Shown here piece after piece: positions 5,661-38,588 of a stretch of DNA of 64,000 nt. Both the position numbers and the translations under genes were made by a program. The DNA comes from Escherichia phage a20. Position 1 is the first letter of the stretch. The number at the start of each line of letters is the position of its first letter. The stretch is taken from the sequence record OQ067374.1, one strand, 5' to 3'. The notes under the pieces are model-generated. The model saw only the letters and a list, made by a program, of their open reading frames with translations. It searched no databases and was not told the origin of the DNA.

Positions 5661-6377
5661 ATGAATTATAACTCAATATACGAAAAGCTTATCACCAATG
5701 CTAAATCAAGAAGTTTAGATGGTTATACAGAACGTCATCACATTATACCACAATGTTTAGGTGGAAGTGATGATGCTTTAAACTTAGTAGACTTAACACC
5801 GGAAGAACATTATTTGGCACATCAACTGTTGGTAAAAATCCATCCAGATAATGCCTCTTTAATATATGCCGCTCGTATGATGACCATATCATCTCCTAAA
5901 GCAGATAGAAGCAAAAACAAATTATTTGGATGGCTTCGACGTAAGAATCAAGAAGTTCAAAAGAATAAAGAATTCACTGCTGAAACCCGTAAGAAAATGT
6001 CCGAGTCTGCAAAAAATAAACCAAAGATTACCTGTCCACATTGTGGTTTAACTGGAACTGAAGGAAACATGCGACGTTGGCATTTTGATAATTGTAAACA
6101 AGGTCCAACGCCTAAAATAGTAAAACTTGATCAAGAAACAAAAGATAAAATAATTAAAACCATGGCCACGAAAATTTGGAAAGAAGATTCTTGCCCGTTT
6201 TGTGGCTTAACTACTAAGTTATCGGCGTTAAAGCCACATATAAAATTCTGTAAATCAAATCCTAACAGAAAGAAAAAAGAGGACAAGAAAATTAAATGTC
6301 CTCATTGCGATAAAATAGGGATCCCTGCTAATATGCATCGTTGGCATTTCGATAATTGTAAATATAAGCCTCATTAA
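5661..6377 (+). CDS. HNH homing endonuclease with three C-terminal zinc-finger-like repeats
   Basis: N-terminal HHIIPQCLGGSDDALNLVDLTPEEHYLAH (HNH motif); repeats CPHCG..RRWHFDNCK, CPFCG..HIKFCK, CPHCD..HRWHFDNCK. Confidence 0.85.
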   Translation: MNYNSIYEKLITNAKSRSLDGYTERHHIIPQCLGGSDDALNLVDLTPEEHYLAHQLLVKIHPDNASLIYAARMMTISSPKADRSKNKLFGWLRRKNQEVQKNKEFTAETRKKMSESAKNKPKITCPHCGLTGTEGNMRRWHFDNCKQGPTPKIVKLDQETKDKIIKTMATKIWKEDSCPFCGLTTKLSALKPHIKFCKSNPNRKKKEDKKIKCPHCDKIGIPANMHRWHFDNCKYKPH

Positions 6378-8062
6378 GAGGCTTTCATTACAGTAAATCG
6401 TCCAACTTTGCTCATTTGAAGATGTTGTCCATAAGCTTGTGGGTCATGGTCTCTGTGACTAATTATAAACACGTTTGCATCGGTTAGAGAGTTAAGAATT
6501 GTTGAAATAGCTTTAATACCTTCAGAATCAGTCGCGGAATCCATGACTTCGTCCATAATTAATGTATTGATTCTAACGCCAGAGACCTTTTCAGCGATAT
6601 CTCGCCATGTAAACAACAATGCGATATCGATACGTGCCTTTTCACCTTGACTAAACGAAGCATAACTGAATTCTTCACGTCCACGTGATTTTATAGATTC
6701 ATTGAATTCTTCGTCAATAGAAAACACATAATCAGCTTCCATGATTTTAAGATAATGGTTAATCTGCTTGTTGAACAGAGGCACATATTTTTTAATGATA
6801 GCACCTTTAATACCAGAATCTTTTAACATATCTGTGATAATACCGCGATGGTATTTTTCAAGAACGATATCCGATTTTGTTTTAATGATTTTATCAAGTT
6901 CTTTTTGAAGCAAAGCTATCTCATCGGCATGGTCGATAAATTCCGCCGAGGCTTGTTCTATTGCAGCTTTAACTTTCTTAGCTTTATCAATAGTGGCAAT
7001 CATTGCTTGTTTCTTGGTACGAATATCAGATGCAAGGTCCTGTTTAGTCTTAACATTAGCTCTATATTCGTCCACTAGGACACTCAGATTATCTCTGTGA
7101 CATGTAAGTTGCTCGAATGAGTGATTACATTCGTGAAGCTTATCGGTAATCTTAGAGACAATAGGATCACCCTGGTGCAACTGTGATGCACAAGTAGGAC
7201 ATGTACCGCCATCATGATACATCTTAATAACTTTGTTATATGAGTCAATTTTAGATTTAATCAAGAATGCTTCTTGTCCTATCTTGTTGAATGCCTCAGT
7301 AGGGTCTTCGTCAAGAACGATATTAAGTAGACGCTCGTTAGCTTCTTCGATTTCTGCTTTTAATGAACGAGCTTCTTTGGCTAGGTCGTCATACATATTC
7401 TGTAGACGCGCTACATTATCACCAGATAATTTCTTTTGGCGTTCGATATTCTCGTTATAAATCTTAATTTGTTGGATAACACCATCTTTCTTGGCATCGA
7501 GAACTTGTCCCTGGGAATTAAGTTCTCGAACTTGAGACTTATTGATTTTATCCATTTCAGCGAGTGTGCCGACTTCTAAAAGGTCTTCGACAAGTTTTCT
7601 ACGAGCAGGGGTGCTAAGAGCCATGAAAGGGGTATACCCTGCCGTCCCAAGCACAACGATTTGTTTAAAAGACGCGTATGACATTCCGATGCTACGTTCA
7701 AATTCTTCTTGGAAGTCACGACTGCTGGCAGATTCATCAAGACGAACACCGTCAACGGAGATTTCGAAAATATTGGGCTTTTGGCCACGTCTAATGAAGT
7801 ATTTTTTATCATCGAATTCCATCCAAAGCTCAACTAAGAGCTCTTTCTTGTTCGTGCTATTAATGATTTGTCCTTTCTTAACATCACGAAATGGTTTACC
7901 GAAAAGTCCGAAAGTAATGGCTTCTAACATCGTAGATTTACCACCGCCATTTTTACCAGTGATTAATGTCTTTTGGACTTTATCTAATTGGATATCAATA
8001 GGATTCCCACCTACCGACATGATGTTTTGATAACGAACACGATTTAATTTAAATGATTTCAT
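6374..8062 (-). CDS. 46: Recombination endonuclease subunit gp46 (Rad50/SbcC-like)
   Basis: 562 aa, Walker A GKNGGGKSTMLEAI, coiled-coil middle, zinc hook CPTC, T4 gp46-like. Confidence 0.92.
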   Translation of the reverse strand: MKSFKLNRVRYQNIMSVGGNPIDIQLDKVQKTLITGKNGGGKSTMLEAITFGLFGKPFRDVKKGQIINSTNKKELLVELWMEFDDKKYFIRRGQKPNIFEISVDGVRLDESASSRDFQEEFERSIGMSYASFKQIVVLGTAGYTPFMALSTPARRKLVEDLLEVGTLAEMDKINKSQVRELNSQGQVLDAKKDGVIQQIKIYNENIERQKKLSGDNVARLQNMYDDLAKEARSLKAEIEEANERLLNIVLDEDPTEAFNKIGQEAFLIKSKIDSYNKVIKMYHDGGTCPTCASQLHQGDPIVSKITDKLHECNHSFEQLTCHRDNLSVLVDEYRANVKTKQDLASDIRTKKQAMIATIDKAKKVKAAIEQASAEFIDHADEIALLQKELDKIIKTKSDIVLEKYHRGIITDMLKDSGIKGAIIKKYVPLFNKQINHYLKIMEADYVFSIDEEFNESIKSRGREEFSYASFSQGEKARIDIALLFTWRDIAEKVSGVRINTLIMDEVMDSATDSEGIKAISTILNSLTDANVFIISHRDHDPQAYGQHLQMSKVGRFTVMKAS

Positions 8063-8313
8063 ATGTATTCTCTTCGAATGAAGTCCTCTACATATTTTAA
8101 CATGTCATCCCTATCAGCAAAATATTCATCTAGTTCTGCATACATAACAACACCTGGTGCGTACTCACAGGTAACATACATTGTTCCAAAGAAACGAGGA
8201 GTTGATTCCTCGTAATTCTCAGTCCATTCAACGATACCAATATAACCGTCACCAATACTAAATTCATGACGATGGATTTCATAATCAGTCTTCGTCATTA
8301 TACGCATCCTCAA
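8059..8313 (-). CDS. Hypothetical protein (46.1 position)
   Basis: 84-aa ORF overlapping gene 46 start by 4 nt. Confidence 0.6.
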   Translation of the reverse strand: MRMRIMTKTDYEIHRHEFSIGDGYIGIVEWTENYEESTPRFFGTMYVTCEYAPGVVMYAELDEYFADRDDMLKYVEDFIRREYI

Positions 8314-8542
8314 TACACGCTTCAGCCATTTTAAGAATAGAGCCAGGAGTATCGTTGTCCATTATATTAAAGCTAAATTCAATAGCCCAGTCGGTGCAGA
8401 CATGAACTGCTTTAACTTCATTGCCTTCAACGCGTAATGGCTCAATCCAATACTTGATAGTGTTCTCGAATCCATCATCATCTTTAACGTCCATTTCAAC
8501 TTCAAGCCTGAGTCCAGCATTGTTAAATTCATCTAAAGTCAT
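8285..8542 (-). CDS. Hypothetical protein (46.2 position)
   Basis: 85-aa acidic ORF between 47 and 46. Confidence 0.6.
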   Translation of the reverse strand: MTLDEFNNAGLRLEVEMDVKDDDGFENTIKYWIEPLRVEGNEVKAVHVCTDWAIEFSFNIMDNDTPGSILKMAEACIEDAYNDED

Positions 8543-9558
8543 TGTGTTGCCTCAATATAAAGTTCGTTGGAATATTTGACCAGCGCTTCTCTGTCTTCGT
8601 CTGAGATATCTGGAATCGCGTCAATATATTCTTTAATGATATCTTGAAGTGATTTAATCTCGATTTCCTGGTCGTCATCAGATTCAACACTGTTATCAAC
8701 TTTAGAAACCATACGAAGAGAGTGAACTACTTTTTCAAGTTCAGATTCAAACTTAGTCAACTCTGAATCAATTTCTGATACTATAACACGTACAGCTAGA
8801 TTAGTATAATCAGAATAATTGATTTTGCCTTTAAACGGATAAGTGATTCGTCGATGCCATGTTGTTTCATTAGGAATAAATTCCATACGTTCAACATCAG
8901 TGTCAAATACCCAGAATCCGCGCGGGTCGTTCTCATCACCTGCAGTAAGGGTCCATGGTGTCCCAATATATTTGACGTTAGCAGCTTCAGAGATTGTGTG
9001 GAAGTGGCCAGACCAGACTTGTTTATAAGTCTTTAAGAAATCAGGTTCAAGCCCATGAGACTTCATCCCTTTATAGAAATAAAAGCCATTCAGTTCCCAG
9101 TGCCCAACACAATACGCTGCAGAAGAAGTCTTGATGTGCTCTAAGATTTCACCTGTATTTTCTTCACACATCCATGGAACGATATCAATCAGACATCCGT
9201 CAAAATCTACAGTAGTTGGATGCTCGTAAATAGTAAAGTTTTCAAATTGAGTTAACAATTCAGAAACAGTGTTAGGTGTTATTGTATTCTTAAACGCCAT
9301 GTCATGGTTTCCTATCGTGACATGAACGTGAATGCCTGCTTTAGAAATCATATCAACGATTTCACGATTGAATTCCATTGTACGATGTGTTATTGCTTTA
9401 CGGACGTCGAACCAATCACCGTACTGAATCCAAGTTTTAATCCCGTGTTTCTTAGAGTATTCAATTGCTTGACGAATACCATCACGTTGAATATCTTGAA
9501 CCCATGGGTCGTCTTGTTTGACTCCGATATGGAAGTCGCCTAAGTGCAAAATTTTCAT
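8539..9558 (-). CDS. 47: Recombination endonuclease subunit gp47 (Mre11/SbcD-like)
   Basis: 339 aa, MKILHLGDFHIG phosphoesterase motif I, GNHD motif, T4 gp47-like. Confidence 0.92.
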   Translation of the reverse strand: MKILHLGDFHIGVKQDDPWVQDIQRDGIRQAIEYSKKHGIKTWIQYGDWFDVRKAITHRTMEFNREIVDMISKAGIHVHVTIGNHDMAFKNTITPNTVSELLTQFENFTIYEHPTTVDFDGCLIDIVPWMCEENTGEILEHIKTSSAAYCVGHWELNGFYFYKGMKSHGLEPDFLKTYKQVWSGHFHTISEAANVKYIGTPWTLTAGDENDPRGFWVFDTDVERMEFIPNETTWHRRITYPFKGKINYSDYTNLAVRVIVSEIDSELTKFESELEKVVHSLRMVSKVDNSVESDDDQEIEIKSLQDIIKEYIDAIPDISDEDREALVKYSNELYIEATQ

Positions 9559-17663: not shown

Positions 17664-17923
17664 TTAAAATATTCTCGCAGTTGGTCAAATCCACCAATGT
17701 GACTTCCGTCAGGAGCAAACACTTGAGGCATAGTCAATCCGACTTGTGATTCACGACCAAGCTTAACCAGAAGCTCAGCAATTTTCTCATCATCGAACAC
17801 ACCTTTTTCTGGCATAACATTAATGAATTCGAATGGCTGTTTCTTAACAGTCAGCAATCTTTTCGCATTATCACAGAAAACACAACGGTGAATAGTAGAG
17901 TCATACCCGTACACTTTAAACAT
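17660..17923 (-). CDS. nrdC: Thioredoxin/glutaredoxin NrdC
   Basis: MFKVYGYDSTIHRCVFCDNAKRLL...GGFDQLREYFK matches T4 NrdC; start at internal ATG 17923. Confidence 0.9.
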   Translation of the reverse strand: MFKVYGYDSTIHRCVFCDNAKRLLTVKKQPFEFINVMPEKGVFDDEKIAELLVKLGRESQVGLTMPQVFAPDGSHIGGFDQLREYFK

Positions 17924-18329
17924 TATTTTTCCTTTCATCGATTAAATATGCAACACCAAATACAATACATGTAATAAAACCTGTGATACCGATAGAGAAC
18001 ATCAACACTGTACCAAAGAACCAAATCAGGTTATCTTTAGTAGTTTGTTTGATATCCATCTCACGAATTTCTATAGCTATCGTATCACCTTTATTCAGAA
18101 GCGTATAAAACGACGGTGATACACGCCTGTCAAAAACTCGTCCTTGCTCATCTTTATAGACGGCAATAAATTCTAATTTAGAATATTTTCCTGTAGATTG
18201 ACCTGAAATTAATTCCACTACCTCCACAGGAATTACTTTAGTTTCCATGTAAGTATTCTGGCTGTTCCAAATGAATGGAATGATGGCAAAAACTAAAGCT
18301 GCAATAAAACAACGAAGGCTATATCTCAT
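17916..18329 (-). CDS. Hypothetical membrane protein
   Basis: 137 aa with N- and C-terminal hydrophobic helices. Confidence 0.6.
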   Translation of the reverse strand: MRYSLRCFIAALVFAIIPFIWNSQNTYMETKVIPVEVVELISGQSTGKYSKLEFIAVYKDEQGRVFDRRVSPSFYTLLNKGDTIAIEIREMDIKQTTKDNLIWFFGTVLMFSIGITGFITCIVFGVAYLIDERKNNV

Positions 18330-18634
18330 TATAATGTTCTCTCAAATTTGTGGAAGCATTTACGGCATTTCAATTTCAAGTTATCAGTGGTCCAGTTAAC
18401 CAGTTGGACTTGGATAGTTCCACATTCTGGGCATGGATGTTTTGCTGCCGATTTGGCAGCATTTTCACGTCGTTCAACCATTTTCATGATTTCGTTCCAT
18501 GCCGGAGGAACGAACTCTTCTTCACCGTGGATTTTATCTCGCTGAACAAATTCAATCTTTGAACTATCATCAATAAACTTAACCAAGTCATGATTAGTGC
18601 TCATATCAATATCCTCTAAAAGACGTAGTTTCAT
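18329..18634 (-). CDS. Hypothetical zinc-ribbon protein
   Basis: 101 aa, CPECG...CRKC motif. Confidence 0.6.
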   Translation of the reverse strand: MKLRLLEDIDMSTNHDLVKFIDDSSKIEFVQRDKIHGEEEFVPPAWNEIMKMVERRENAAKSAAKHPCPECGTIQVQLVNWTTDNLKLKCRKCFHKFERTL

Positions 18635-19584
18635 TATAAAACCTCAATGGCATTTCGTAAACCATCCGCTTTCGCATTCAGAGCTTTTAACGATTTAGTT
18701 TGTTCTGCAATCTGGGCTTCGACTTCTTTCAGACGAGATTTGAGATATTCGCGTTCTTCTCTTAAGTTATCAACTTTTTCTGCTTTAGGCTCTTTAATAG
18801 GCTTAGGTTTATACGTATTAGGGTTCTTCAGTTTAATTTGAATTCGAGAACTGAATAACATTGAACCGTTATCTTCGGTTTCACTGTGTATTTCTACCAC
18901 GTCCATGATTCTTAACATCATGCGAAGTTTATAAGACAGCGAACGAACGGTTTTATTGTGCTTCTTAATTTCTTCAGCTTTCATGGTGCCGAGATTACGT
19001 GAGTAGTAATAAGGAACCTGAATATCAATTGATAATGATGCGGTACCATTACCGGTTGGTTTGAACACTGCAGTAACCCAATCTTTAGCATGAACTGTAT
19101 TTGTACGATCATCGCCGCCTGTGAATAATTTACGAGAATGTTTAAAAAGCATATTCACTTGGTTATTGAATTCACAAGCAAATTTATCAGCAAATTTAGT
19201 TTCAGGAATGGTAGTTAACCAATCAGCCAAATGAGTCTTTTTAACATCATTAACAATAGTGAATTCAACCAAATCGGTTTTAGATGTCACAGATTTAATA
19301 AAGCTCGGCTTCATAAAGTTTTTAATGTTATCGCGAGCTACAGTAGAAGATAATAAACGAGAACGTTTGAACCATTGAAGCAACGTCCCTAACGAATGAG
19401 AATACGCATTTTGAGTATCTTTACAGATATGATTTTCTTGGCCTATGTATGTACCAAAATCGCGAAGAATACCACTTACTACATCTCGGTGTGGAACATC
19501 AAATCCTAGTGCACCAGAAGCACGTTGGGCATGAACGTTAGCGATAAGACCTGCAAAGTATTCAATGTAATGTGAACGTGTCAT
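18634..19584 (-). CDS. Hypothetical protein, paralog family member A with C-terminal coiled coil
   Basis: 316 aa; shares motifs such as RDNIKNF with the next two genes; heptad-like C-terminus. Confidence 0.7.
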   Translation of the reverse strand: MTRSHYIEYFAGLIANVHAQRASGALGFDVPHRDVVSGILRDFGTYIGQENHICKDTQNAYSHSLGTLLQWFKRSRLLSSTVARDNIKNFMKPSFIKSVTSKTDLVEFTIVNDVKKTHLADWLTTIPETKFADKFACEFNNQVNMLFKHSRKLFTGGDDRTNTVHAKDWVTAVFKPTGNGTASLSIDIQVPYYYSRNLGTMKAEEIKKHNKTVRSLSYKLRMMLRIMDVVEIHSETEDNGSMLFSSRIQIKLKNPNTYKPKPIKEPKAEKVDNLREEREYLKSRLKEVEAQIAEQTKSLKALNAKADGLRNAIEVL

Positions 19585-19612
19585 AATATTTTCCTCTCGT
19601 TAAGATAGATTC

Positions 19613-19642
19613 ATTATACTCCAACCATCCTTGGTTGTAAAC
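19613..19642 (-). promoter_or_regulatory. T4-early-type promoter (GTTTAC-N18-TATAAT) with CAACCA/TGGTTG palindrome in spacer
   Basis: Minus-strand GTTTACaaccaaggatggttggagTATAAT, then SD GAGAGGAAA and ATG 19584. Confidence 0.45.
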
Positions 19643-19646
19643 TATT

Positions 19647-20606
19647 TTATGATTTTAACGCATTCATTGCGTTAAAAAGTTTAGAATACTGCAACTGGAG
19701 ATTCGTTACAACACTTTGAGCATCACGAAGCTTAGCTTGTGCTTTGTCAAGTTCAACAGACAGTTGGTCCATAGTGGCCTTGATTTGATTGTAACGGTAA
19801 TCTTCGGCCGGAAGAAGGTCATTAGAAACATTTAGTTTTACTGCAGACAGTTTGCACACATTTGGCAAACCTTTAAACATTGATTTACCCGAAGTAGAAT
19901 AAGCACTTAGGACTTCGGCCTGTTCAATTGGGGTCCCAGTAAGCGATGCTTCAAACAATGCATTTTCCTTTTTAAGATTTTGATAATATTCGGAGTCTTT
20001 GTGCCACCATGGCGCAGGAACCTTTTTACCAATAGATACACGAGCCTGGATAGCGATATGGCCCTTATTCTTGATAGGGTCGATAATATTAAGCTCACGA
20101 GAATAAATTGCTTTAATCTGGTGGATATTATCACCTAAAACTTCCAACGCTTGGTGGAATACACGAGCAACGTTATCATTCTTAGGTTTATACGTAAGAG
20201 TGAACTCGTTCTCACTGATAACCATGATTTCTAACTTATCGTAAGTATATTTCAAATGTTTCATGTTAATTGCTTGAGGACGAATACGAGAAGCAATGGC
20301 CATCAGATTGTTAAGGTTATTCCGGAACTGCTTAGCGAAATATTGTCCTTCACCACCAATACAAAAATTACGAAGTTTCTGTTTGGCTAATAAACGGCTG
20401 AACTCACCATTTTTAATGAACTCTTTAACGGGTGTGTTAGTAACGCATTCAAATTGAGTAAACTTACGAGAAGTAATCCCATAATATGAACAGATTTCCT
20501 CAATCTCTTCAGGAGTCTTTACAGGCATACGGATAGGATTAGGTCCTGGAGTATATGCGTTCGAGGTAAATTCTTTGATAAGTTCTCTACGTGTAATAAA
20601 AGCCAT
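19647..20606 (-). CDS. Hypothetical protein, paralog family member B with C-terminal coiled coil
   Basis: 319 aa; motif FRNNLNNL; near-identical upstream promoter element to member A. Confidence 0.7.
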   Translation of the reverse strand: MAFITRRELIKEFTSNAYTPGPNPIRMPVKTPEEIEEICSYYGITSRKFTQFECVTNTPVKEFIKNGEFSRLLAKQKLRNFCIGGEGQYFAKQFRNNLNNLMAIASRIRPQAINMKHLKYTYDKLEIMVISENEFTLTYKPKNDNVARVFHQALEVLGDNIHQIKAIYSRELNIIDPIKNKGHIAIQARVSIGKKVPAPWWHKDSEYYQNLKKENALFEASLTGTPIEQAEVLSAYSTSGKSMFKGLPNVCKLSAVKLNVSNDLLPAEDYRYNQIKATMDQLSVELDKAQAKLRDAQSVVTNLQLQYSKLFNAMNALKS

Positions 20607-20661
20607 TTTATATTCCTCATGTTGAAAAATTTATTATACTCCAACCATCCTTGGTTGTACA

Positions 20662-21657
20662 TCATTCCTTAAGAAGTTTTACTACTTGAATAAGATTAGC
20701 TCGTTCTGTTTTATTTTTACCGTTTAAGCCTGCTAATCGTGAGATTTCATCGTCAGTCTGTTGAATAGTTACATTAAGTTCGTTAATCAAAGCTTCAAAG
20801 TATTTGATTTGCTCAGCATGTTTTGATTCAAATTTCTGAACCGGAATAACGTCTTGATTCAGTTCATCAATAAGGTCTTTAAGAGCATCTTCTTGGTTGA
20901 TATCATATTCAACTTCTTTTATTTCTTCAACGAGCTCGTCTTTATATCTAACGTCTTTTAGTCCTGGAGCTGGTCCTAAAATCTCTTCTTTAAGAGTACA
21001 AACATATCCAATACGATATCCAGTGCCGTCTCGCTTGATATCAACTTCGTCGATAAATCCACAATGTTTAAGACCAGAGCCGATTAGGTTAAAATATCCT
21101 TGACGTCGTCCTTCAAACGTTACACGAACTACTAAGACGGTTTTGCCACTGACCTTTTGAAGCTCACATTTATAAAAGTCTGTTGAACCTGAATAACATG
21201 GATGAGTTTTAAAGTTCATCTGACGATCTAGACCCATTTGTAAGCGTGCTGATACGGCCATAAAACGTGTTTGGTTCTCGTTAAGATGAGCAACAATCCA
21301 TTTCAAAGGCATTTTACACTGTTCACGACCGAACAAATCAGTACGTCCTAGATTACGCAGGATGTTGTTAGAGTTAATCATCGACAGAACGTTAAGTTTA
21401 TTCAGCGCGCTGAAGATTCCATCAGCCATTGATTTTCCGTAACCTTTACACGCTTTAATAAGCGCTCGCGGCAGATTAGTATAGATTTCAGACGGCATAT
21501 GAAAATCAAATTTACTAGTCAGTAATTGATGAACTTGGATAGCAATTTGCTCATAATTAAGTGCTCTGCGATCATTATGGTCTTTAAACCACACTTTAAT
21601 CTGTGAAGCACATAAACCGTTAATTTCATGTTTTACCGCATCAGATGTAATGCTCAT
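20662..21657 (-). CDS. Hypothetical protein, paralog family member C with C-terminal coiled coil
   Basis: 331 aa; motif NNILRNLGRTD; same promoter element upstream. Confidence 0.7.
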   Translation of the reverse strand: MSITSDAVKHEINGLCASQIKVWFKDHNDRRALNYEQIAIQVHQLLTSKFDFHMPSEIYTNLPRALIKACKGYGKSMADGIFSALNKLNVLSMINSNNILRNLGRTDLFGREQCKMPLKWIVAHLNENQTRFMAVSARLQMGLDRQMNFKTHPCYSGSTDFYKCELQKVSGKTVLVVRVTFEGRRQGYFNLIGSGLKHCGFIDEVDIKRDGTGYRIGYVCTLKEEILGPAPGLKDVRYKDELVEEIKEVEYDINQEDALKDLIDELNQDVIPVQKFESKHAEQIKYFEALINELNVTIQQTDDEISRLAGLNGKNKTERANLIQVVKLLKE

Positions 21658-21719
21658 AACTATTTCCTCAGATTGAATTGGAACTCAAAACCATTATAAC
21701 CCGTCCTTGGGTAAAGCGT

Positions 21720-22247
21720 TTATGCGTGAACCGTCTTTAAACGTTCTTCAAATTTCCGAAGAGTACTAATACGTTCTGCTTTCTGTTTTGTATAGTTTGC
21801 AATACGTTCTGAAGTGAGAGCGTATCGTTCGTTTACTGTTTCTTTCATGAAGTCAGGGATTTCACGAGAAGCTTTAATTTCATCAAACTTATCGAGTACT
21901 GCCTGGTCTTCAGCGATTAAATTTTCGTACATCTCGATATCTTTCTTGATAAACTCGATATCTTCCTGGGTTACTTTGGATAAACGAGACGCTTTATCCT
22001 TTTTGTACTGCTCGTTAGTTTCACGAGACCAGAATAATGTACGTTTTTTGTTAGTGTTTTTGTAGACTTCCACAATTCCAACTGAATCGATGATAGCAAT
22101 CCAATTCCAGCGAGATTTGAAAATCTGACCTCCATCCACGGTAATCTCGTTACCATAAGCAACGTCATTAAAGAACTTGCTTTGTGCTTCAGATTTAAAT
22201 TTACCGTCGTTATAATTTACCAGGTTGAAAATATCTTTAGCGTTCAT
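21720..22247 (-). CDS. Hypothetical protein with C-terminal coiled coil
   Basis: 175-aa ORF, SD TGGAGGT. Confidence 0.65.
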   Translation of the reverse strand: MNAKDIFNLVNYNDGKFKSEAQSKFFNDVAYGNEITVDGGQIFKSRWNWIAIIDSVGIVEVYKNTNKKRTLFWSRETNEQYKKDKASRLSKVTQEDIEFIKKDIEMYENLIAEDQAVLDKFDEIKASREIPDFMKETVNERYALTSERIANYTKQKAERISTLRKFEERLKTVHA

Positions 22248-22274
22248 GTTTTACCTCCAGTAGTTGATAGGTCT

Positions 22275-22303
22275 ATAATAACATAACCATAGACCTTGTA
22301 AAC
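22275..22303 (-). promoter_or_regulatory. T4-early-type promoter (GTTTAC-N17-TATTAT with TG extension) inside GGTCTAT/ATAGACC inverted repeat
   Basis: Minus-strand GTTTACaaggtctatggttatgtTATTATagacctatcaactac. Confidence 0.4.
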
Positions 22304-22305
22304 AA

Positions 22306-22731: not shown

Positions 22732-23712
22732 TTATTTCAGTAAAGTTACTTCAGAGATTTCCTCCCAACCATCTTTATCAGTTGAAATAAAATCCGCTAC
22801 ATAAAGAGCCGTACGTAATGATACATTGCGAAGACGAGATACGTTAGCCTTCATCCAGGACAATGCTTTATACGTTTCTGCATCCGTCAGGCCACGTTTC
22901 TGCATCATGTCAGTAGATAATATTACATCTTCAACTCGAACCATAATCTCTTCATTAGAGTGTACTCCAAGGTCCAAATACACTGAACGAGATACTAAAG
23001 CTTGAAGGTGCGGAGCAAGTTTCGAACCGCGTTCTAACTCTTTATCGATATCAACGTTTGTAATGAAAACGATAGTACCTTCAAACTCAAATTCTTTATC
23101 AATACCCTTATCATCGAGATAAGATGACGCAGTGCTCCAACAAACTTTGCGTTTATCTCCGGTATCTAATGCTGCTTTAAGAAGGTTCAAGATGTCCATA
23201 TCTGAGAATACATCAACGTCGTCGATTAAGAGAACGCTGTATGCATCACGGTTGAGCCAAAGTTGTTCGTAAAGGCCAATACCAGAGATTTTACCATTAA
23301 TGCTTTTGTATTTGATGAAACCATTATCATTAGCATTATTAAGTGCTTTATCCAGAGAATACGTCTTACCAATACCAGCTGCACCTGAAATAATGAGTGA
23401 ACGAATTTTGCCATCGATAATGCCGTTCGTCATCATGTTCATTACTTTAAAGCGTTTGTTGATACGAGTTTTCATATCTTCAGTGCTTTCAACAACTGCA
23501 ACTGGTGATGTCTCAACTCCTTCCATTACGATGTCTGATTTGAAGACCCATACTCCACGTTCAGAACCATCAATCATAACGAAAATTTTACCATCACCTA
23601 AGTGGGAACATTCAGGATTAAGCTTTGCCGGGAACCAGGTCTTTGTGGCAACATAAGAACCAGAGATTTCGTTATTACGATAGATACCTTTTTTGATTTG
23701 AACGTTGAACAT
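22732..23712 (-). CDS. P-loop NTPase (AAA-like) of unknown function
   Basis: Walker A ISGAAGIGKTYS, Walker B VLLIDDVD, TIVFITN; start at ATG 23712 (MFNV) with SD GGAG. Confidence 0.65.
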   Translation of the reverse strand: MFNVQIKKGIYRNNEISGSYVATKTWFPAKLNPECSHLGDGKIFVMIDGSERGVWVFKSDIVMEGVETSPVAVVESTEDMKTRINKRFKVMNMMTNGIIDGKIRSLIISGAAGIGKTYSLDKALNNANDNGFIKYKSINGKISGIGLYEQLWLNRDAYSVLLIDDVDVFSDMDILNLLKAALDTGDKRKVCWSTASSYLDDKGIDKEFEFEGTIVFITNVDIDKELERGSKLAPHLQALVSRSVYLDLGVHSNEEIMVRVEDVILSTDMMQKRGLTDAETYKALSWMKANVSRLRNVSLRTALYVADFISTDKDGWEEISEVTLLK

Positions 23713-23829
23713 TTTATTCTCCAATTTACTCATTTCGTTTCGATAGGTCTATAATAACATATCCTAAAAGCATGTACACTACTTTTTTAAATATTTTAAC
23801 CCCCTAAAGGGACCCGAAGGTCCCCACAT

Positions 23830-24096
23830 TTACTTATCGCACTTAGCAACATAATTAGGCATATCACAGAATACAGAGCGAGTAACTACTCGGCCCTTTG
23901 ACCATGCTTCAGTTGCTTGTCCGGCCGTGCTATTAATATAGCTTGATTTAATGTTCTCAATACCCTGAGAATGTGATGCATTTACCGAACCGTTGGAAGG
24001 CCCAGAAGACTGGTTACCACCAGCTCCTGCACCTGTGGTAGCACCAACAGAGAATGCCATCATTACTGCGAATAAACCAATTACTAATTTTTTCAT
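23830..24096 (-). CDS. Small secreted protein (signal peptide)
   Basis: 88 aa, MKKLVIGLFAVMMAFSVGA signal, Gly/Ser/Asn-rich mature part. Confidence 0.6.
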   Translation of the reverse strand: MKKLVIGLFAVMMAFSVGATTGAGAGGNQSSGPSNGSVNASHSQGIENIKSSYINSTAGQATEAWSKGRVVTRSVFCDMPNYVAKCDK

Positions 24097-24127: not shown

Positions 24128-25114
24128 TTATTTATAGTAAGAATTATGATTTTCGAGATAGACTTGCTCAAGGAAATCATCCCAGAAACTCATATCTACT
24201 TTTTGTTGCATACCGTTCTTAGCGGCTTGTTCCGATGCTTGTTCAACTTGGTCAACGATATCTTCTAGGAATTCTTGTACAGTTTTAAACGTATGTTTAC
24301 CAAGCTTAACATCGAGAATAAATGGAGCATCCTGAAGTGGGTAAACTAAGTCGCCGGTTTTGTAAATTTCCAATAGTTGAAGTCCACCACGACATGCATG
24401 ACTCAATGCTTTCCAGTCAATACCTTCGTTGGCTTCCGCCTTACGAGCACGTTCACCGTAGTTCTCTTCCAGTTTAACCAGGATGGCATTGAACTCTTTA
24501 TTGGTTAACGTATCTTGGAATTTACGGTCTAACAGATTATAGAATGTTTGCTTACCTGTTTTCTCGTTTTCGGTTTCAACCCACGAAGCAAATTCACCTA
24601 TAGGCAGAACATTCTTCATATGTGATAAACGAATTACTGCACCATTATCAAAGTATTGTCCCCATTCATTAGAACGTTTAAGGGCTTGACGAAGAACAGC
24701 CAGTCGAGAACCCTTGACACCGTATTTAGAAGCTTGCTTACGGACATACCCTAAATAAGATTTCATGTTAGTGGTATAGAAACGAGACCTGTTATCTTGA
24801 ATATACTTCCATACATCAGGCAAATCAGATTTAACTACTAGACTTTGTGGAGTGTGAAGCATATCTAATGCGACGGTTTCACCATCTGCAGCTAGTTTAA
24901 AGAAATATTTGAGACTATATAACTCATGGTCTACGTCGTCTTTTGTGTTCTTAGAAGATGTGTTATTCGTGTTCTTGCTCATGTGTTCTTTAACGTTACC
25001 GGTCAAGATATCACGAGCATGAGGGACATAAATTTCTTTAAAATCAACGTCAGATTCAGGGGTAGACGTTCCATAAAGGTGGCTACCAAAGTAAGCCTTA
25101 ACAATCGTTTTCAT
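24128..25114 (-). CDS. Pol-beta-superfamily nucleotidyltransferase-like protein
   Basis: N-terminal FGSHLYGTSTPESDVDF fits the hG[GS]...D.[DE] NTase motif; 328 aa. Confidence 0.6.
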   Translation of the reverse strand: MKTIVKAYFGSHLYGTSTPESDVDFKEIYVPHARDILTGNVKEHMSKNTNNTSSKNTKDDVDHELYSLKYFFKLAADGETVALDMLHTPQSLVVKSDLPDVWKYIQDNRSRFYTTNMKSYLGYVRKQASKYGVKGSRLAVLRQALKRSNEWGQYFDNGAVIRLSHMKNVLPIGEFASWVETENEKTGKQTFYNLLDRKFQDTLTNKEFNAILVKLEENYGERARKAEANEGIDWKALSHACRGGLQLLEIYKTGDLVYPLQDAPFILDVKLGKHTFKTVQEFLEDIVDQVEQASEQAAKNGMQQKVDMSFWDDFLEQVYLENHNSYYK

Positions 25115-38520: not shown

Positions 38521-38588
38521 TTTGTTTACTCCTCTGTAGTTGATAAGTCTATAGTATCACCATCCTTGGTGCTTGTACATCATTATTT

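Follow-up and report, generated by a model that had tools for sequence, protein, structure and literature searches.

Three successive genes in the nrdC-tk region of Escherichia phage a20, each encoding a protein of about 320 amino acids (aa), raise the question of whether they descend from one ancestor and what their products do. The genes were analyzed within a 64,000-nucleotide (nt) stretch of sequence record OQ067374.1, here called the window, whose numbering is used throughout. Judged by their sequence profiles, the nrdC.3/nrdC.4 and nrdC.5 types are ancient, strongly diverged remote paralogues, and nrdC.6 is probably a remote paralogue of them as well. The best explanation overall, in which we place fair rather than firm confidence, is that the locus is an RB69-type T-even early accessory block of diverged paralogues acting as anti-defence inhibitors. 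The three genes and a smaller fourth one are the following:

18634-19584, minus strand: nrdC.3 homologue, 316 aa (phrog_1435, PF26897)
19647-20606, minus strand: nrdC.5 homologue, 319 aa (Pfam DUF7235/PF23882, phrog_2351), of the same family as T4 NrdC.5
20662-21657, minus strand: nrdC.6 homologue, 331 aa (phrog_2257, PF26899)
21720-22247, minus strand: nrdC.8 homologue, 175 aa (phrog_2274)

An earlier note, made from the sequence alone, had described these four open reading frames (ORFs) and placed them in the variable nrdC-tk region of a T4-like genome. On the whole, what it observed is largely borne out, and its interpretation in part. All four are present at the coordinates that it gave, on the minus strand, and the placement is correct, the ORFs being homologues of T4 nrdC.3, nrdC.5, nrdC.6 and nrdC.8. 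The window belongs to Mosigvirus (RB69-like T-even phages); the 4.3-kb array region shares 97-99% identity with many Mosigvirus genomes and has matches in 638 T-even phage records. In the annotated record of RB69 the genes are called nrdC.3, nrdC.5, nrdC.6 and nrdC.8, and T4 has nrdC.3, nrdC.4, nrdC.5, nrdC.6, nrdC.7 and nrdC.8 at the equivalent place. Neither nrdC.1 nor nrdC.4, the latter carried by T4, is found in the window. The gene order is common to the annotated loci of RB69, T4, RB14, moha, Bp7, VR25, EAWsc9 and DK-13. In T-even coliphages, non-essential early genes form a conserved block ordered nrdC.3 and/or nrdC.4 - nrdC.5 - nrdC.6 - (nrdC.7) - nrdC.8, and the region is its Mosigvirus (RB69-type) version. 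These are long-known T-even accessory genes; what is new here is the evidence for remote paralogy, and the advance is modest.

Each assignment is supported by full-length family matches. ORF 18634-19584 matches the phrog_1435 profile over residues 1-316 (E 4e-105), shares 56% identity with T4 nrdC.3, and all its relatives carry a precomputed PF26897 assignment. ORF 19647-20606 scores 411.4 bits against PF23882 (cut-off 30; E 3.4e-123; residues 15-318 on model positions 1-307) and E 1.4e-98 against phrog_2351, the same models that T4 NrdC.5 matches at 5.3e-126 and 1e-168, respectively; in BLASTP the two proteins are 25% identical across 308 aa (E 5e-9). ORF 20662-21657 matches phrog_2257 over its full length (E 3.5e-127), has PF26899 as its Pfam family, and is 30-33% identical to T4 and other Tequatrovirus nrdC.6 proteins (33%, E 1e-33, to the 295-aa Tequatrovirus proteins). 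The nrdC.8 homologue is well conserved (83% identical to T4 nrdC.8), and profile comparison detected no relation between it and the three larger proteins.

Pairwise alignment, which the earlier note had set as the refuting test for its claim of three paralogues, finds no similarity among them. BLASTP among the three proteins returned nothing (best E 0.25-5), profile-profile comparison with shallow alignments drawn from a large protein database also returned nothing, and Pfam and PHROG place the proteins in three separate families. These results favor a different history, in which the three are unrelated ORFans that are alike only in size, helical tail and N/K-rich composition, and the array was assembled by inserting separate promoter-gene cassettes and not by duplication. 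Promoter cassettes are indeed known vehicles of modular shuffling in the hyperplastic regions of T4-like phages (PMC4122927), and the nrdC.5 alignment, searched as a profile against 1.84 billion proteins, recovered its own family only, indicating a very narrow distribution. All tblastn matches likewise fell within T-even coliphage relatives.

Deeper profiles, however, link nrdC.3 and nrdC.5 clearly and nrdC.6 marginally. Profiles were rebuilt with array homologues from Tequatrovirus, Mosigvirus, Dhakavirus and Gaprivervirus, and hhalign comparisons were controlled with column-shuffled profiles, which gave the null score, and with reversed profiles. An early pointer came from T4 nrdC.4 and nrdC.3, which share phrog_1435, are already related by BLASTP (E 4e-6 to 6e-5), and reach a probability of 94% in hhalign (E 1.4e-7). 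The combined nrdC.3 and nrdC.4 profile matches nrdC.5 at probabilities of 93% (E 4e-7) and 71% (E 3.6e-5), with scores of 43-56 against a null of 13 ± 2 (maximum 19) and reversed controls of about 15. Scores involving nrdC.6 are lower, at 25-28 with nrdC.5 (E 0.005-0.017; null 14 ± 2-3, maximum 17-20) and 21-25 with nrdC.3 and nrdC.4 (E 0.014-0.059; null 14 ± 2-3, maximum 17-21). In an hmmsearch with 774 ORFs as decoys, the first foreign matches of the nrdC.5 model were eight nrdC.3 proteins (E 6e-4 to 4e-3), ranked before any decoy, and the first foreign match of the nrdC.3/nrdC.4 model was T4 NrdC.5. No significant match was obtained for nrdC.6 in that search, and a merged nrdC.3/nrdC.4/nrdC.5 profile (hhalign -oa3m) did not match nrdC.6 either.

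An origin from unrelated ORFans draws further support from the nrdC.6 links, which are not significant when taken alone. Against it, the similarity between nrdC.3/nrdC.4 and nrdC.5 is reciprocal and far above the shuffled and reversed controls, the alignments agree with the predicted order of secondary structure, the three pairwise alignments share one register, and the gene order is kept across four genera. We therefore consider it unlikely, and remote paralogy is the preferred reading.

The region that aligns covers residues 71-256 of nrdC.3 and 62-198 of nrdC.5, comprising two helices and a beta-beta-beta-alpha-beta-beta unit. The order of these elements matches the AlphaFold2 order in both proteins, the models being of low confidence, and the three pairwise alignments are consistent in register, including those of nrdC.6, which are weak. 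The first shared motif reads SRLLSSTVARDNIKNF in nrdC.3, FSRLLAKQKLRNF in nrdC.5 and LSMINSNNILRNL in nrdC.6, and the second reads FACEFNNQVNMLFKHSRKL, FAKQFRNNLNNLMAIASRI and IVAHLNENQTRFMAVSARL, respectively. The short motifs on which the claim of paralogy had been built are thus real but were mis-registered: RDNIKNF of nrdC.3 and NNILRNL of nrdC.6 pair with KQKLRNF of nrdC.5 and not with RNNLNNL, which is part of the second shared helix (FAKQFRNNLNNLMAIASRI, matching FACEFNNQVNMLFKHSRKL and IVAHLNENQTRFMAVSARL). The accompanying picture of diverged N-terminal domains on a common tail did not hold, as the detectable similarity is central, in the two helices and the alpha/beta core. The layout proposed for the three ~36-kDa proteins opens with an N-terminal helical part that varies and continues with a pair of conserved helices (first SRLL..LRNF and next F..F.N..N.L....SR[IL]) and a small beta-beta-beta-alpha-beta-beta core. 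A linker, which is hypervariable, leads from there to an amphipathic C-terminal helix, about 45 residues long, whose end reads L..A[ILMV]..LK.

The tails of the proteins had been read as coiled coils. Long C-terminal helices are indeed predicted by AlphaFold2, at residues 275-315 of nrdC.3 (predicted local distance difference test, pLDDT, 73-84) and 267-318 of nrdC.5 (pLDDT 56-67), but a crude heptad count of hydrophobic a/d positions was not above that of shuffled sequences. The tails are best described as C-terminal amphipathic helices, for which a coiled coil is plausible as a prediction. The motif L..A[ILMV]..LK is common to all families, and the nrdC.3/nrdC.4 and nrdC.5 tails align nearly in register (E 0.0014). 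The similarity of the nrdC.6 tail to the other tails was not above the null.

Such helices could also mean that the proteins assemble with one another into a hetero-oligomeric complex and serve one host-takeover task, instead of acting as independent inhibitors. Four genera retain adjacent members of these families, one from each, every family ends in a similar helix with its motif at the extreme C-terminus, and the near-register alignment of the nrdC.3/nrdC.4 and nrdC.5 tails points the same way. On the other side, plasmid-borne T4 nrdC.5 alone rescues a deletion phage, phage ACG-C40 retains nrdC.6 without nrdC.3, nrdC.4 or nrdC.5, the tails of T4 nrdC.6 and RB69 nrdC.5 appear frameshifted, each gene has its own promoter, and the tail similarity does not extend to nrdC.6 above the null. 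A joint complex is thus distinctly improbable, and diverged paralogues acting independently are preferred.

Many GenBank records suggest another role altogether, as these ORFs are labeled 'thioredoxin' and would accordingly be accessory proteins of redox or nucleotide metabolism; nrdC, nrdD and nrdG adjoin the array. The proteins have no match to a thioredoxin or glutaredoxin Pfam family at E up to 1 (window proteins) or 0.1 (scan of T4 NrdC.5), no CxxC motif is present in the translations of the three larger ORFs, no relative of known structure was found, and the array genes can be deleted. Evidently the label goes back to the gene names nrdC.N, which are positional, and it appears to spread from them. 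We give a metabolic role hardly any credence. In many deposited genomes, 'thioredoxin' stands on homologues of nrdC.2 to nrdC.11, and 'Mur ligase domain' stands in one record; both labels were rejected as annotation artefacts because domain evidence is lacking. The earlier note had recognized no catalytic motif. Neither an enzyme domain nor a housekeeping homology was found in the array proteins by Pfam searches or by PDB sequence and profile searches, and the latter returned no relatives of solved structure.

The evidence on function comes from T4. An evolved T4 deletion clone fails on ECOR17 owing to Dsr1, a SIR2-domain (sirtuin) defence, and T4 nrdC.5 alone, expressed in trans, restores growth and plating on MG1655 with dsr1 (Srikant, Guegler & Laub, eLife 2022, PMC9391042). 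The guess that the array acts against host defence is therefore backed by published work in the case of T4 nrdC.5, whose family includes the middle ORF of the window, and reaches the other members by inference. Because ORF 19647-20606 shares a family with T4 NrdC.5, counter-defence is the reading best supported for it; paralogy and context make the same role the leading hypothesis for its neighbors. Most probably, the array comprises anti-defence proteins that are distant relatives and evolve fast.

In the mechanism proposed here, the nrdC.3-, nrdC.5- and nrdC.6-type proteins would inhibit the anti-phage systems of the host stoichiometrically. The NrdC.5 member would bind and block a Dsr1-type SIR2 NADase sensor-effector, as T4 NrdC.5 counters Dsr1 genetically, and the C-terminal helix would supply oligomerisation. 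The neighbors of NrdC.5 would be aimed at other defences or at other alleles of the same defence, and host range would be tuned by allele swapping between phages. A broader proposal, which we regard as possible and advance only tentatively, unites nrdC.3, nrdC.4, nrdC.5 and nrdC.6 in a single superfamily, not recognised before, whose members would be modular proteins of counter-defence built on the same alpha/beta core and oligomerising through the C-terminal helix. The individual paralogues, and their highly diverged alleles, would then each recognize a host immune sensor of their own, Dsr1 in the case of T4 NrdC.5, and the array would be an exchangeable host-range cassette.

The local pattern of divergence bears on this reading. 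Relative to T4, identity is 25% for nrdC.5 and 30% for nrdC.6, and 78-91% for nrdC.8, nrdC.10, nrdC.11, gp49 and nrdC; relative to Mosigvirus moha, it is 80% for nrdC.5, 85% for nrdC.6, and 94-99.7% for all other compared genes. In their neighborhood, these two stand well apart as the most diverged genes. Between the two Mosigvirus alleles of nrdC.5 and nrdC.6, the ratio of nonsynonymous to synonymous divergence (dN/dS) is 0.17-0.18, with dS strongly raised. Both are genuine genes under purifying selection, and their alleles are old or exchanged, not freshly diversifying. For nrdC.3, at least three allele classes exist, one Tequatrovirus class resembling the allele of Mosigvirus more than that of T4, and the sequences suggest allele exchange between genera. 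The RB14-type Tequatrovirus nrdC.3 is 75-77% identical to the Mosigvirus protein and 60% identical to the T4-type allele of its own genus.

The array genes are dispensable, as judged from one natural deletion and two altered C-termini. In phage vB_EcoM_ACG-C40 (locus 7805-8213), a natural 2.6-kb deletion fuses nrdC.5 at codon ~67 to nrdC.3 at codon ~237 through a junction with a 9-nt overlap; nrdC.4 and most of nrdC.3 and nrdC.5 are lost, and nrdC.6 is intact. The T4 nrdC.6 reference (locus 8067-8894, 275 aa) diverges past ...QIEEL and is missing the conserved tail that the 295-aa protein has in other Tequatroviruses, and in the RB69 nrdC.5 reference (locus 6001-6903, 300 aa) similarity ends after residue 237. 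Both C-termini look like frameshifts in laboratory strains.

Several points weigh against a block of paralogous anti-defence inhibitors. The link of nrdC.6 to the other families never reaches conventional significance. The AlphaFold2 models, built from shallow alignments, are of low confidence (pLDDT 52.5 for nrdC.3 and 41.5 for nrdC.5) and agree only in the order of their secondary-structure elements, a Foldseek search of BFVD with the low-confidence nrdC.3 model returned its own orthologue only (TM 0.32), and the coiled coil, the fold and the oligomeric state are predictions. The RB69-type NrdC.5 is only 25% identical to T4 NrdC.5, so its target may differ. Direct binding by NrdC.5 is an assumption because the mechanism of the T4 protein is unpublished, a literature search having found no later paper that names it, and an anti-defence role of nrdC.3, nrdC.4 and nrdC.6 is putative. 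In addition, no direct signal of positive selection is seen, the divergence being accompanied by raised dS with dN/dS well below 1.

How the genes are expressed can be read from the intergenic regions, which hold the following elements:

19613-19641, minus strand: T4-type early promoter of nrdC.3 (TTTACA, 17 nt, TATAAT)
20633-20661, minus strand: early promoter of nrdC.5 (TGTACA, 17 nt, TATAAT), beginning one base past the nrdC.6 stop codon
21693-21718, minus strand: probable promoter of nrdC.6 (CGCTTTA, MotA-box-like, 13 nt, TATAAT)
22275-22302, minus strand: T4-type early promoter of nrdC.8 (TTTACA, 16 nt, TATTAT)
~22275-22250, 23751-23730, 31360-31340 and 38550-38530, minus strand: conserved stretch downstream of the -10 box (AGACCTATCAACTAC)

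The same promoter element had been noticed ahead of the first two ORFs, and it is there: CCAACCATCCTTGGTTG is present twice, within an identical 25-nt stretch (CAACCAAGGATGGTTGGAGTATAAT) directly upstream of nrdC.3 and nrdC.5, against a chance expectation of zero, and both copies are good sigma-70 promoters. Their description as private promoters was mistaken. They are ordinary T-even early promoters and not private regulatory elements, because 13 T4-type early promoters lie on the minus strand of the window, many with AAGGA or TAGGA in the spacer; that of nrdC.10 resembles those of nrdC.8, nrdC.3 and nrdC.5. The consensus reported for such promoters in the PST/T4 pair is TTTACW, N17, TAYWAT (Comeau et al. 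2014, PMC4122927).

Upstream of nrdC.6, CGCTTTA-N13-TATAAT is a probable MotA-type middle promoter when read against the MotA-box consensus, and the T4 nrdC.7 promoter has the same layout. The nrdC.3, nrdC.5 and nrdC.8 genes would each be driven by their own sigma-70 early promoter just past the stop codon of the upstream gene, and nrdC.6 would be expressed from its probable MotA-type promoter, so that the products would be made soon after infection.

Less usual than the promoters themselves are the palindromes in some of their spacers. In the nrdC.3 promoter, CAACCA-AGGA-TGGTTG lies between -35 and -10 (19622-19637); a stem-AGGA-stem palindrome also occurs in the nrdC.5 promoter spacer (20642-20657) and in a third promoter (38558-38571) on the minus strand, and an imperfect one, ACCCA-AGGA-CGGGT, in the nrdC.6 promoter spacer (21700-21713). 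The apex, CA-AGGA-TG, is constant and recurs in the T4 nrdC.3, nrdC.4 and nrdC.7 promoters, where the stems are GCCA/TGGC, CCACA/TGTGG and TACCA/TGGTA; the stems in the window are CAACCA/TGGTTG and CACCA/TGGTG. The stems differ, yet they remain complementary. An intrinsic terminator was considered for the palindrome and rejected, as a T-run is absent and a terminator scan made no call there. Past the -10 box, several early promoters have TATTAT or TACTAT followed by the conserved AGACCTATCAACTAC; the conservation therefore reaches the transcribed leader.

Further genes flank the array. The nrdC.7 homologue (17916-18329) encodes a predicted membrane protein, 41% identical to T4 nrdC.7, and lies between nrdC and nrdC.2 in the window and RB69, and between nrdC.6 and nrdC.8 in T4. 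The nrdC.10 homologue (22732-23733) has a Walker-A-like motif, GAAGIGKT, seen by eye. The nrdC.11 homologue is at 24128-25114, T4 nrdC.11 being annotated as a nucleotidyltransferase. Between these two, an 88-aa ORF (23830-24096) has an N-terminus, MKKLVIGLFAVMMAFSVGA, that looks signal-peptide-like by eye.

The T-even phages serve as the main model and rank among the major groups for phage therapy, and the nrdC-tk region is among their least understood parts. Tying the nrdC.3-nrdC.6 block to an anti-Dsr1 member provides three candidates per phage for unexplained host-range differences, and the alleles, at 25-80% identity, form a natural series for mapping how a phage protein recognizes a sirtuin-type NADase defence. 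Functional inference is indirect for two of the three genes, anti-defence being supported for one and inferred for the rest.

Among known systems, the nearest is the T4 array itself. The first and third ORFs of the window are direct homologues of T4 nrdC.3/nrdC.4 (phrog_1435) and nrdC.6 (phrog_2257) in the same genome order, whereas the window phage lacks nrdC.4 and carries its nrdC.7 homologue elsewhere (17916-18329). ORF 19647-20606 shares with T4 NrdC.5 the same full-length Pfam model, PHROG, array position and early expression, a similar length and a similar C-terminal helix. It differs in being only 25% identical, with an unlike linker and unlike N-terminal ~60 residues, and the window type may recognize another Dsr1 allele or another system, activity against Dsr1 being known from the T4 protein only.

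An analogy of mechanism only can be drawn with DSAD1, by which a phage inhibits DSR2, and with further small proteins that inhibit NADase defences. The likeness lies in the mode of action proposed here, in which a SIR2-type sensor-effector is bound by a phage protein and NAD+ is kept from being depleted.

The promoters resemble the PeSL cassettes (Arbiol 2010, PMC2839356; Comeau 2014, PMC4122927). The published stem-loop lies upstream of the promoter and has a terminator role, whereas the palindrome of the window lies in the -35/-10 spacer and has no T-run. Common to both are T4-type early promoters repeated between short accessory genes of a hyperplastic region; the promoters of the window likewise come with a small stem-loop, and the repeat could support recombination.

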